DNA from: a virus
Lineage: Duplodnaviria > Caudoviricetes
DNA: 64,000 bases
Strand: one strand, 5' to 3'
Virus record (IMG/VR): IMGVR_UViG_3300023055_000005
Below are positions 9,674-57,268 of the stretch, one piece after another (position 1 is the stretch's first letter; each line of letters begins with the position of its first letter). Position numbers and translations under genes: made by a program. Under the pieces are notes generated by a model that saw only the letters and a program-made list of their open reading frames with translations, had not been told where the DNA came from and ran no database searches.

Positions 9674-9710
9674 CATACTCCCCCTCCCGGTTGGGAGGGG
9701 GAGCTATGCC
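9674..9710. terminator. Bidirectional hairpin terminator between convergent genes
   Basis: CATA-CTCCCCCTCCC-GGTT-GGGAGGGGGAG-C-TATGCC, then a T-rich tract. Confidence 0.75.
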
Positions 9711-10171
9711 TATCTCTTTTTCTTTGTCCCGATTACGATATCGGTTTCGAAGGGTAACGGATCAAGGTAGTGATACATCAAAGGACGGATCATGTCCTCG
9801 TAGTTCAAGTGCCCATTACCGCAACCCAAGGGGACCATGGCCATGTCACTGATCCCCATCTGTTCATGCTTGTCTCTCAAGCGGATCAAGTTAGCCTCGA
9901 TCCAGTCGTAGCGTGACGGGCTACCCCACCATTGCTTGGTGGGAAAGAGCAAGACTTGTCGACCTTCCCCGAAGGGATACAGATACATCTTGTCAATGGA
10001 CAAGGCCTTAGCCTTGAACAACTTCATGTAGAACTCGTAGAGACCTGGGATAGACTCACGCAGACTCAGCGCAACTCCAGCCCCCATAGCACCTGTGGTA
10101 TTGATGGTACACACGAGCGTTTGACGCGGGGACGCCGAAACGTCCCCTACCAGTTCCTGTACGATCGGCAT
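9710..10171 (-). CDS. DarG/TARG1-like macrodomain (ADP-ribosyl hydrolase)
   Basis: VCTINTTGAMGAGVA, LLFPTKQWWGSPSRYDWIE, AMVPLGCGNGHL match the DarG-class macrodomain pattern, including the FPTK Lys. Confidence 0.88.
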   Translation of the reverse strand: MPIVQELVGDVSASPRQTLVCTINTTGAMGAGVALSLRESIPGLYEFYMKLFKAKALSIDKMYLYPFGEGRQVLLFPTKQWWGSPSRYDWIEANLIRLRDKHEQMGISDMAMVPLGCGNGHLNYEDMIRPLMYHYLDPLPFETDIVIGTKKKR

Positions 10172-10701
10172 TATCGACCACTCTTCCCGTCGGTGGCTTC
10201 ACGTGCTGCAGCTTCGGCAGCAGCCTGCAGCTTAGCTTGTCGCTCCAACCAATCCGCGTTGCTCTTGAACATGATCTCCGTTTCCCGCCGACTGAGTAAG
10301 ACGAACTCGCTCCACGACACCCCATACCGGTCCTTGATCCCGTTGATCATGTACCGATACATCTTGTGCTCAAGCGGGCCGTAAGACCCGTATTGCTCTT
10401 TGGGGTGCATGGCAACAGCAGCCATGGGGCGAAGATCTACATCCCCCGTCTCTTCAGTGTAGCGAGAGTCGTGGTAGAAGATCCCGTAGTAGTCGTCGTA
10501 CTCCTCCATGCACATCAACTGCACTGACATGGAGTCAACTTCCGAACTGACCGTAGCCAGCAGGTTGTTGTGCGGACCTAGATCGTTGACCTTATCCAAC
10601 CCGAAACGATCAAAGACTACATGACCGTTCGGGTCTTCTTGTTCAAGGTCTACATCACAGAGGCGGAAATCGCCTTCGCTGTGCGCTGGCCGAGGAGCGT
10701 G
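10171..10701 (-). CDS. Tail/baseplate assembly chaperone C-terminal extension (phiKZ gp76-like; T4 gp51-like), probably reached by -1 frameshift
   Basis: The frame is open upstream of the track's TTG start (10599) through the slippery run at 10701-10707, with no ATG in that stretch. The C-terminal YGVSWSEFVLLSRRETEIMF resembles gp51/GT-type chaperone ends. Confidence 0.65.
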   Translation of the reverse strand, partial: HAPRPAHSEGDFRLCDVDLEQEDPNGHVVFDRFGLDKVNDLGPHNNLLATVSSEVDSMSVQLMCMEEYDDYYGIFYHDSRYTEETGDVDLRPMAAVAMHPKEQYGSYGPLEHKMYRYMINGIKDRYGVSWSEFVLLSRRETEIMFKSNADWLERQAKLQAAAEAAAREATDGKSGR

Positions 10702-12356
10702 AAAAAAAGTCGTGTCACGTCGAGCGGCAGCAGGCGCGGATGCTTGGAGCCTTCCACGGTCTGCGGGGCGGAACAGACACGGCAGTTGTAGCGCGGGATC
10801 GCCACCATTGCCACGGTCACCGAGTCGATGAACTTCTGCACGCCTTCGGTGAAGCGCTCCACCACGTCCTGGCGGCTGGAGATTTCGCCGAGCAGTTCGA
10901 CGAACGATTCACGCACGTCATCCTGGTCATCTTCTTCCGGGTTGAAGGTGAGCACACCTGCAACTTCTTCTTCCTTGTTCTTGAAGATGATGCGCTTGAC
11001 CCAGTGGCTGTACTGACGAGCGGTGGCCATGCGGGACTGCGCCATGATGTACTGGTCGCGTTCCTGCCCTTCCAGGGCGGTGCCGAAGGCCGCGTCCACG
11101 CGCTCTTCGATGGAGTTGATCCATTCGAAGGAGGACTTCTCGTACAGCTCCACCGTGGGGACGGCGAACTCGACGTAGATGTCATCGCTGATGGCGCACA
11201 GCGCGGTTTCGGCGTAGGAGTGGCTGTTGACGTACTCGGTCAGCTCTGCGTCGTTGCTCTTCTGCGTACGACGGGCCATCAGCTTGCGCTGGCTCTGGCT
11301 CAGTGCACGACGGTCCACGAAGAGCAGGCGCGAGAGGTTCAGCACTTCTTCTTCGATGTGCTGGCACTGGCCGGTGTGGTTGGTGCACGGACGGGCCAGC
11401 GGGTAGCCGTTGGGGTTGTTGATCAGACCCAGCTGCAGCATGAGCAGCGGGATATCGGTGATCAGCATCTTCTGCTTGATCGATGCCGGGGAGATGTCCT
11501 TCAGCGTGCTGTCGTACATCTTGCTGATGGCGAAGTTCGTCACCGTCAGCTGATGGTAGACGTTGTTGGCCGAGAAGGCCAAGCCGCCGGAGACACGACC
11601 CAGGGAGATCTTGCTGTTGCCCAGCTGCTGTTCCAGTTCCAGCATCTCGCCTTCACCCGGCGCCTGCAGCGACACCCAGAAGCCGGAGTGCCACATCGGT
11701 GCCTGTGCCAGCGAACCCACGCCCAGACGCGCCTTCAGGCGGCTCTTGGCTTCTTCGCCGGAGACACGGCCGTTGGTGGTGGAGTTGCCGCCGGTGGCGA
11801 TCGGACGGCCGATGGCCAGCTCTTCGCCGTTGTGGTCAACAGTCTGCTGCCAGTCCGAGCCTTCGCGACTCAGGGCACGGCTGCCGTACTGACCGGTGGG
11901 CATCAGGCGCGAACCACGAGCAGCACCTTCCAGCCAGCGGATGATTTCCGGCGTCGGGGTGAGGTTGAGGTTGCCCATGCTTTCACCGACCGGAGCGAAC
12001 TCCTCGGCGGTCTGGTTCAGGGACCACAGGTGGAAGCCCTTCTCCATGTCCTGCGCTTCGGCTTCGGTGGCCAGCGGACGGGTGACCGGACGGGTGAGGG
12101 TCACGGTCTTGCTCGGCGGCACGGCTTCCGAGCGCTTGGGCTGAACGCGACGCGCGGCGTCGGCGGCGAGCACACGTTCCTGCTTGCCGATCGGGGTCTC
12201 GACATTGGTCGCCGGGTCTTCGACGGAAGGCGGGTCAGCCGGGGTACGATCATGGTTCACGAACGTGCGCGGGTCGTCAACCGGGATCGCTGCCGCCTCG
12301 ACGGGCGTTTCCACGGGTGGCTGGTCGTCGATGTTCTCGTTGGGATCCTGCGTCAC
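10650..12356 (-). CDS. Putative tail/baseplate hub assembly chaperone (phiKZ gp77-like; T4 gp26-like C-terminus)
   Basis: 568 aa; C-terminal YNCRVC followed by LDVTRLFF, as in gp26-type chaperones; core-block position. Confidence 0.65.
   Translation of the reverse strand: MTQDPNENIDDQPPVETPVEAAAIPVDDPRTFVNHDRTPADPPSVEDPATNVETPIGKQERVLAADAARRVQPKRSEAVPPSKTVTLTRPVTRPLATEAEAQDMEKGFHLWSLNQTAEEFAPVGESMGNLNLTPTPEIIRWLEGAARGSRLMPTGQYGSRALSREGSDWQQTVDHNGEELAIGRPIATGGNSTTNGRVSGEEAKSRLKARLGVGSLAQAPMWHSGFWVSLQAPGEGEMLELEQQLGNSKISLGRVSGGLAFSANNVYHQLTVTNFAISKMYDSTLKDISPASIKQKMLITDIPLLMLQLGLINNPNGYPLARPCTNHTGQCQHIEEEVLNLSRLLFVDRRALSQSQRKLMARRTQKSNDAELTEYVNSHSYAETALCAISDDIYVEFAVPTVELYEKSSFEWINSIEERVDAAFGTALEGQERDQYIMAQSRMATARQYSHWVKRIIFKNKEEEVAGVLTFNPEEDDQDDVRESFVELLGEISSRQDVVERFTEGVQKFIDSVTVAMVAIPRYNCRVCSAPQTVEGSKHPRLLPLDVTRLFFTLLGQRTAKAISASVM
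10701..10707 (-). other. Predicted -1 ribosomal frameshift slippery heptamer T TTT TTC
   Basis: Minus strand CTT TTT TTC (L-F-F) in the 568-aa frame; a -1 shift enters the open frame of the downstream ORF. Confidence 0.7.
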
Positions 12357-21040: not shown

Positions 21041-21098
21041 CGGCATAGCTGGGCTCCCCGCGAGGGGAGCCCAGTATCCAGTCCTCTTTTTTTTTGCT
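21041..21098. terminator. Bidirectional terminator between convergent genes
   Basis: GGCATAG-CTGGGCTCCCC-GCGA-GGGGAGCCCAG-TATCC, then a T9 tract. Confidence 0.8.
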
Positions 21099-36304: not shown

Positions 36305-36360
36305 GACATAGTCTCCACTCCCCTACGGGGGAGTGGAGCTACAGGTAGTCTTTTTTTTGT
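36305..36360 (+). terminator. Hairpin terminator
   Basis: CTCCACTCCC-CTACG-GGGGAGTGGAG, then a T tract. Confidence 0.7.
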
Positions 36361-44391: not shown

Positions 44392-44421
44392 TCCCCGCAA
44401 AAAAAAAACTACCACAAGGAA

Positions 44422-57223: not shown

Positions 57224-57268
57224 AACGGGAGGGGCTTCGGCCCCTCCCTCTATGTCTTTTTTTTTGTC
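57224..57268 (+). terminator. Intrinsic terminator
   Basis: GGGAGGGGC-TTCG-GCCCCTCCC, then TATG and a T tract. Confidence 0.8.

Follow-up and report, generated by a model that had tools for sequence, protein, structure and literature searches.

How is an open reading frame (ORF) translated when the first codon that could start it lies well inside the frame? This question is raised by a locus on the minus strand of the virus record IMGVR_UViG_3300023055_000005, of which we analysed a stretch of 64,000 nucleotides (hereafter, the window). At positions 12356-10171, an ORF of 568 amino acids that is homologous to phiKZ gp77 overlaps a long ORF in the -1 frame. A sequence-only reading of the window had predicted that a programmed -1 frameshift fuses the two. 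Our comparisons support this prediction, since a T-run followed by an open -1 frame, in the same frame relation, is found family-wide. We consider it probable that the gp77 homologue is decoded in two ways, with a -1 slip at a T TTT TTC heptamer giving proteins of 568 and 728 amino acids. A programmed -1 frameshift with these two products is well supported at the sequence level because the T-run and the -1 ORF are conserved, the start of that ORF is not, and the stretch ahead of its first possible start looks like coding sequence. We infer that the shift is ribosomal and that the long form is the minor product.

With 87% identity to Xanthomonas phage Xoo-sp14, the stretch comes, judging from its sequence, from a close relative of this nucleus-forming jumbo phage. 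The elements of the locus are the following.

12356-10650, minus strand: zero-frame ORF of 568 amino acids with a GTG start, the predicted short isoform.
10707-10701, minus strand: slippery heptamer T TTT TTC in the X XXY YYZ register, within CTT TTT TTC (10709-10701), coding for Phe551-Phe552.
10700-10650, minus strand: zero-frame tail of 16 sense codons and TAG (10652-10650), a stretch that also encodes, in the other frame, the beginning of the -1 extension.
10701-10171, minus strand: -1 frame extension of 176 codons and TAA (10173-10171), open from the heptamer on.
10599-10597 (TTG) and 10530-10528 (ATG), minus strand: candidate internal starts of the -1 ORF, in the region 10599-10528.
10683-10656, minus strand: hairpin CACAG-CGA-AGGCG-ATTTC-CGCCT-CTGTG (5 bp, 3-nt bulge, 5 bp, 5-nt loop), beginning 17 nt 3' of the heptamer.

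The GTG start of the 568-residue ORF and the stop of the upstream gene share a GTGA overlap. In the -1 frame, the first ATG, GTG, or TTG is the TTG at 10599, codon +35 past the shift. No ATG occurs ahead of 10530, where gene callers and the Xoo-sp14 record place the start. Both candidates lie 3' of conserved residues of the extension. The two predicted products have 568 and 728 (552 + 176) amino acids, or about 62 and 80 kDa, with residues 1-552 in common; their phiKZ counterparts would have 533 and 687 amino acids. The junction of the longer one would read ...TRLFF/HAPRPAHSEGDFR, and the tryptic peptide spanning it in the trans-frame protein is predicted to be LFFHAPRPAHSEGDFR. The heptamer, its distance of 16 codons from the stop, the open -1 frame to 10171, the TTG at 10599, the product sizes, and the junction had all been read correctly from the sequence alone. 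The codon choice in CTT TTT TTC is unusual for this genome because, in a window with a GC content of 57.6%, TTT makes up only 8% of the Phe codons of the likely genes (65 vs 722) and CTT 14% of their Leu codons. The rarity of these codons and the conservation of both the site and the open -1 frame in about 109 relatives show that the heptamer site exceeds chance.

We analysed the junction with scripts in 15 GenBank phages and about 120 IMG/VR loci, which gave 109 distinct junctions with GC contents from 0.25 to 0.60. An in-frame TTT TTY, placed 8-44 codons ahead of the zero-frame stop, is present in 105 of them, and the X XXY YYZ heptamer stands in the zero-frame register in the window and in 105/109 relatives. 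The heptamer is T TTT TTT at 53 of these sites, T TTT TTC at 27, G TTT TTT at 14, A TTT TTT at 6, and of other types at 5; the base before TTT TTY is T in 80/105. The first Phe codon is TTT without exception (105/105), GC-rich genomes included. All 105 in-frame sites lead into a -1 frame that stays open over 149-195 codons (median 166), and the median for the +1 frame is 12. A long conserved -1 ORF without a conserved start of its own runs from the site in these relatives as it does, over 176 codons, in the window. This is the outcome of the check that the sequence-only reading had proposed, i.e., whether a slippery T-run and an open -1 frame are kept at the gp77 junction across phiKZ relatives.

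Four junctions lack the in-frame site, and all of them have a long open downstream frame. Three carry a T5-T6 run in another register (CTT TTT ATT in loci L094 and L095, GTT TTT TCC in L125), each with a long open -1 frame. The fourth is the record of the Xanthomonas phage RTH11 (OQ790161; positions 1990-2010 of our locus L002), the only exception to the -1 frame relation, which holds at 108/109 junctions. The run of this record is one T shorter (T7) than that of the sister phage LucasX (T8), and its 627-residue ‘gene’ continues in the third frame, matching neither conserved product. The missing T probably reflects an error of the record in the homopolymer; alternatively, the slippery run may truly vary in length. 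Across the set, the nearest upstream -1 stop is 3 codons off (L132, L134) and the nearest zero-frame stop 8 codons off (201phi2-1, L029), which confines a homologous shift position to the approximately 11 codons that hold the T-run. In the Burkholderia phage FLC9 (L012) and the Ralstonia phage RsoM3USA (L013), the last CxxC motif of the protein, a short distance ahead of the slip site, has been lost; the T-run coding for Phe-Phe and the -1 extension are kept.

No start codon of the -1 ORF is conserved among the 109 junctions. The first ATG, GTG, or TTG is scattered between -87 and +151 codons from the site, and it can come very late (+151 of 154 codons in L063, +143 in L139, +135 in L113, and +85 in phiKZ and KTN4). 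These observations bear on the view that there is no recoding, in which the downstream ORF is independent, starts at TTG 10599 or ATG 10530, and lies behind an upstream open frame that is incidental. A weak GGAAG found 9 nt ahead of ATG 10530, the use of this ATG in the Xoo-sp14 record and in the Atlas gene call, and the starts found near the zero-frame stop in some relatives, such as the TTG of 201phi2-1 gp135, fit this view. However, the starts are not homologous, several AT-rich relatives have none for 85-151 codons while the frame stays open, and the -1 frame relation at 108/109 junctions has to be accounted for. Relatives with an ATG and a Shine-Dalgarno of their own for the downstream ORF and without the slippery site, which the sequence-only reading had named as the finding that would speak against it, are not what we observe: the T-run is conserved and the start is not.

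The substitution patterns argue further against an independent gene. In 25 related pairs, the stretch from the zero-frame stop to the first possible start has 37, 34, and 102 changes at positions 1, 2, and 3 of the -1-frame codons, and its changed codons are more often synonymous (77) than non-synonymous (52). The bias towards the third position is also found in the rest of the extension, with 386, 230, and 939 changes. By this measure the pre-start stretch is translated in the -1 frame and, since it contains no start codon, can be reached only from upstream. In an alignment of 74 extension sequences, residues F34, Y69, and E103 are at least 90% conserved, and F34, which is part of an FG motif, lies upstream of the TTG of the window. 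Taken together with the evidence on the starts, this makes a downstream gene without recoding very improbable. A variant of that view adds an independently started product of 119-142 amino acids alongside the fusion.

The frameshift reading is consistent with the slow evolution of the junction itself. In 74 sequences aligned at approximately 26% mean identity, no more than six columns are invariant, and Phe551 and Phe552 are two of them. Substitutions in the dual-coded overlap amount to 0.13 per codon over the 25 pairs, 3.3-fold fewer than the 0.42-0.45 found elsewhere. A block of 155 nt around the site is approximately 99% identical to Xoo-sp14, compared with 87% overall. The zero-frame tail is conserved in its own right (FFTLxxQ...) and is modelled as the last helix, residues 547-567, of the short isoform. 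This speaks against the idea that a sequencing error in the homopolymer, or a recent mutation, split a single gene of 728 codons. The break does fall in a homopolymer, and the RTH11 record appears to carry a one-base error there. Yet about 108 assemblies made independently, across many genera and with many sequencing platforms, have the two-frame arrangement, and none of the 109 junctions shows an in-frame fusion. Artefact or decay can be set aside for practical purposes.

If the -1 ORF is indeed reached by frameshifting, most ribosomes would read through CTT TTT TTC, add the 16-residue C-terminal helix, and stop, giving the protein of 568 amino acids. Some would slip one base back, the P-site tRNA-Phe leaving UUU and the A-site tRNA-Phe leaving UUC to re-pair on U UUU UU, and would go on for 176 codons in the -1 frame to give the protein of 728 amino acids. 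Contigs from four studies of phiKZ by RNA sequencing have an unedited T7 across the junction, so the bulk mRNA would require recoding to reach the -1 ORF, although contigs hide minor variants.

Several observations weigh against this proposal. First, T4 gp26, which does not frameshift, also has an FF-x-LL motif. The Phe-Phe pair would thus be ancestral, and its conservation at the amino acid level is by itself no evidence for recoding. Second, 84 of the 105 sites (80%) are T7-T9 runs, more than 30 of them T8-T9, which is longer than a slippery heptamer needs. Third, the 60 nt that follow the site fold no better than windows from the gene body (mean z of +0.33 over 74 loci). Finally, the information profile upstream of the site shows no Shine-Dalgarno-like motif. 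Neither of the elements that could stimulate the shift, a hairpin or pseudoknot 5-9 nt 3' of the site or an upstream Shine-Dalgarno, is therefore conserved.

The length of the runs keeps transcriptional slippage a live rival: the polymerase of the phage or of the host would add one U at the T-run, and normal translation would then produce the same 728-residue protein. Hybrids of rU and dA are the most prone to slippage, and the single T by which RTH11 falls short of LucasX indicates that the run is prone to indels in replication, sequencing, or assembly. On the other hand, bacterial transcriptional slippage is inefficient at 5-6 T's, which is all that 24 of the 105 in-frame sites and the three off-register sites have. 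The X XXY YYZ register kept at 105/109 junctions points in the same direction, even if it is confounded by the conservation of Phe-Phe, and so does the exclusive presence of T7 in the phiKZ contigs, a weak test because minor variants are lost from contigs. We consider transcriptional slippage unlikely, and a ribosomal shift remains our preferred reading.

The sequence-only reading had drawn attention to a stem-loop 17 nt past the heptamer. It is indeed there, at that distance, and is found in the minimum-free-energy fold. A role as a stimulator is not supported: the hairpin is far from the site, it is not conserved (one of its pairs is broken without compensation in L016, a relative with 83% identity), and downstream structure is not in excess across the family. 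Four IMG/VR loci (L058, L062, L071, and L118) have strong hairpins of 8-9 bp at 9-10 nt past the heptamer, with z values of -1.1 to -2.6 relative to gene-body windows. Stimulators may be lineage-specific, with most lineages lacking a strong hairpin.

What is then the gene that is decoded in this way? According to notes in the 201phi2-1, PhiPA3, and PA1C records, the ORF of 568 amino acids is the homologue of phiKZ gp77, 201phi2-1 gp136, PhiPA3 gp074, and EL gp47, and the extension is homologous to PHIKZ076.4, 201phi2-1 gp135, and PhiPA3 gp073. The sequence-only reading had placed the site at a gp77/gp76 junction; it was right about gp77, whereas the phiKZ partner is PHIKZ076.4, gp76 being on the other strand. 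The gp77 homologue is core gene cg18 of the Chimalliviridae, listed as a ‘hypothetical protein’ (supplement of Prichard et al. 2023). In PHROGs, the two ORFs match only families of unknown function (phrog_4585 and phrog_12109, respectively). The neighbouring genes are homologues of gp78, gp79, the virion RNA polymerase beta' subunit, and a RAD2/SF2 helicase. The gp77 homologue itself is matched in 220 phage records (tblastn).

The records are consistent with the downstream gene being normally given a wrong start. It carries ATG, GTG, or TTG starts that are not homologous across records, or it is preceded by a large unannotated gap. In phiKZ RefSeq, 218 nt between PHIKZ077 and PHIKZ076.4 lack any annotation, and the Xoo-sp14 record has a gene of 577 amino acids, a gap of 120 nt, and a gene of 119 amino acids. 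None of the 16 chimallivirus records checked at the junction, phiKZ RefSeq included, has a joined or slipped coding sequence. The frameshift is not mentioned in the literature that we searched, which was mostly outside subscription journals and included the 2025 Annual Review on nucleus-forming phages, the core-genome paper of Prichard 2023, the 2026 preprint on the Goslar structure, and the preprint on phage transposon sequencing. This agrees with the earlier statement that no such event was known to be described for Chimalliviridae.

Two other genomic features of the window deserve mention. The next gene on the same strand (9710-10171, minus strand) encodes a 153-residue Macro-domain protein (PF01661, 22.3 bits for a cut-off of 22). 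The start codon of this gene shares bases with the stop codon that ends the extension (TAATG), an arrangement suggestive of translational coupling between the gene and the -1 ORF. The gene looks like an insertion, as Xoo-sp14 has none there on the same strand. The window also contains four more T8-T10 or A10 runs (21087-21095, 36351-36358, 44399-44408, and 57257-57265) and 18 occurrences of TTTTTTY for 7 expected.

The body common to the two products has a plausible relationship with known proteins. The AlphaFold2 model of the short isoform is of good quality (predicted local distance difference test, pLDDT, of 84; predicted template modelling score of 0.82) and has a fold like that of T4 gp26 and gp51 at residues ~200-560. 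In a fold search of BFVD, the homologues from chimalliviruses are followed, at ranks 20-33, by proteins of many phages that are either T4-like baseplate-hub assembly proteins or subunits of the hub (E from 1e-3 to 0.1, probability 0.85-1.0, template modelling (TM) score by target 0.45-0.53). The AFDB clusters give a match to a ‘Baseplate protein’ of 221 amino acids with a probability of 0.97. The fold is thus shared with proteins of PF12322 (T4_baseplate), in comparisons where both sides are predicted models. Three of the 74 homologues also match this Pfam family at E<=1. The best of them, from L071, aligns residues 367-508 to positions 107-212 of 219, in the C-terminal half of the profile, with 23.4 bits and an E-value of 5e-5, which is below the gathering cut-off of 24.5 bits. 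PF12322 was found nowhere else in five chimallivirus records.

Both T4 gp26 and gp51 are members of PF12322, and gp51 also carries PF28602 (Gp51_C). The two are listed as hub assembly chaperones, gp51 being absent from the particle (Leiman et al. 2010, PMC3004832). The alignments show two Cys pairs and a C-terminal FF-x-LL that are colinear in gp26 and in the window protein: C82/C84, C187/C190 (CPECG), and a FFELL at the very end (...EFFELL) in the former; C323/C330, C524/C527, and F551 F552 x L554 in the latter. The last CxxC is the one lost in FLC9 and RsoM3USA. In the T4 RefSeq (L140:5803-6429, minus strand), gene 26 also yields 26', of 95 amino acids, from an internal in-frame start, and thus gives two products from one gene by another route than frameshifting.

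The extension is modelled with similar quality (pLDDT of 83.7), and its 74-sequence alignment contains the conserved FG, Y, and E. T4 gp51 runs past its ...VFKLL with a 45-residue tail that corresponds to Gp51_C. The top fold match of the extension in the ESM-Atlas is a ‘putative Gp51’ cluster, of which 49% of the members have Gp51_C (TM score of 0.76 by hit over 60 residues, root-mean-square deviation of 2.2). These fold matches suggest that the extension would end in a helical domain resembling Gp51_C. A language-model search of the Atlas with the extension returned only unnamed viral clusters.

The link with gp26 and gp51 is weakened by a series of results. The window's own protein has no PF12322 match in Pfam at E<=1. 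Comparisons of the gp77 profile by hhalign with gp26, gp51, and two T4-family alignments gave probabilities of 5-22%, with shallow alignments on the T4 side (effective number of sequences of 3-4). The match to Gp51_C spans 60 helical residues without sequence support: hhalign gives a probability of 0.2% between the gp51 tail and the extension, and a local hidden Markov model (HMM) does no better than its reversed controls. Local HMMs of the T4 families searched against the in-silico fused products yielded only weak and inconsistent matches. Fold searches of both models in the PDB (Foldseek, VIA-align wide) gave only helical-hairpin noise, with Z<=6.7. As sequence profiles reach significance for neither link, we regard the gp77 core as a probable but unproven relative, much enlarged, of the T4 hub chaperones gp26 and gp51. 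The sequence-only reading had pointed to this likeness; it is recovered at the level of folds, by the BFVD matches, the PF12322 match close to the cut-off, and the top match to Gp51_C, and not at that of sequence profiles.

These models lead to the hypothesis that the short form is gp26-like and the long form gp51-like, in which case the frameshift would supply the two in a fixed ratio from one gene. Generalising it, we put forward as a possibility, and a tentative one, that in every nucleus-forming jumbo phage a single recoded gene replaces the gp26/gp51 pair, with a gp26-like chaperone made in the zero frame, a gp51-like catalytic form with a tail of the Gp51_C type made through the -1 frame, and the shift taking place at the ancestral FF-x-LL, co-opted to that end. 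The stoichiometry of baseplate-hub assembly would then be set by the frameshift, and current family annotations would have missed a recoding event that is family-wide. Irrespective of this, the annotation of core gene cg18 would be corrected in 16 chimallivirus records, including the 218 nt of phiKZ coding sequence left as an intergenic gap. Two ‘hypothetical’ proteins gain a first functional lead as putative baseplate-hub assembly chaperones of the gp26/gp51 type. Proteomic databases and the interpretation of knock-outs or transposon sequencing should take into account the trans-frame product, of 728 amino acids here and 687 in phiKZ. Beyond the G/GT tail-chaperone pair, the locus would add a deeply conserved case of programmed -1 frameshifting to those of phage morphogenesis; having no obvious stimulator, it would lend itself to simple tests of how ribosomes slip on U-runs.

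How does the locus compare with known systems? With T4 gp26/gp51 it shares the fold-level matches of the gp77 core, the near-threshold match of a homologue to PF12322, and the two Cys pairs followed by the C-terminal ...C-x-x-C...FF-x-LL. In both systems, the short form ends just past FF-x-LL (as gp26 does) and the long form runs into a helical tail (as gp51 does). The differences are that T4 has two separate paralogous genes and no frameshift, that its proteins have 208 and 249 amino acids instead of 568 and 728, that the tail of gp51 has 45 residues and the chimallivirus extension 150-195, and that the profile-profile and HMM comparisons are not significant.

The slip itself resembles those of T7 10A/10B, at the end of the capsid gene, and of Escherichia coli dnaX, where a -1 slip on a homopolymeric or nearly homopolymeric heptamer near the 3' end of the gene results in two proteins in a set ratio. 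The gp77 site is also such a heptamer close to the 3' end of its gene. Gene families and roles differ. The dnaX site has a defined Shine-Dalgarno element ahead of it and a hairpin past it, and its shift gives the shorter product, whereas the gp77 site has no conserved stimulator and its shift would give the longer one.

The sequence-only reading had spoken of a ‘lambda G/GT-like logic’. Membership in the lambda G/GT family is not supported, as neither homology nor genomic position is shared: the gp77 locus matches no tail-assembly-chaperone Pfam family at E<=1, and it is not located between tube and tape-measure genes but among those for a virion RNA polymerase subunit, gp78/gp79, and a helicase. 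Its body is also far larger (552 amino acids), and its client is likely to be the baseplate hub instead of the tape measure. The logic does stand. As in lambda gpG/gpGT and the tail assembly chaperones of long-tailed phages, a gene for a morphogenesis chaperone would carry, close to its 3' end, an X XXY YYZ heptamer at which a -1 slip takes place. As in lambda, neither product is listed among virion proteins: the notes of the 201phi2-1 record have no mass-spectrometry flag on gp135 or gp136, and the paper on the structure of the Goslar virion mentions neither ‘gp81’ nor ‘gp081’ in its main text, gp081 being our inferred numbering of the cg18 homologue in Goslar. And as with gpG and gpGT, the two predicted products have a common N-terminal body, to which the longer one adds an extra domain.

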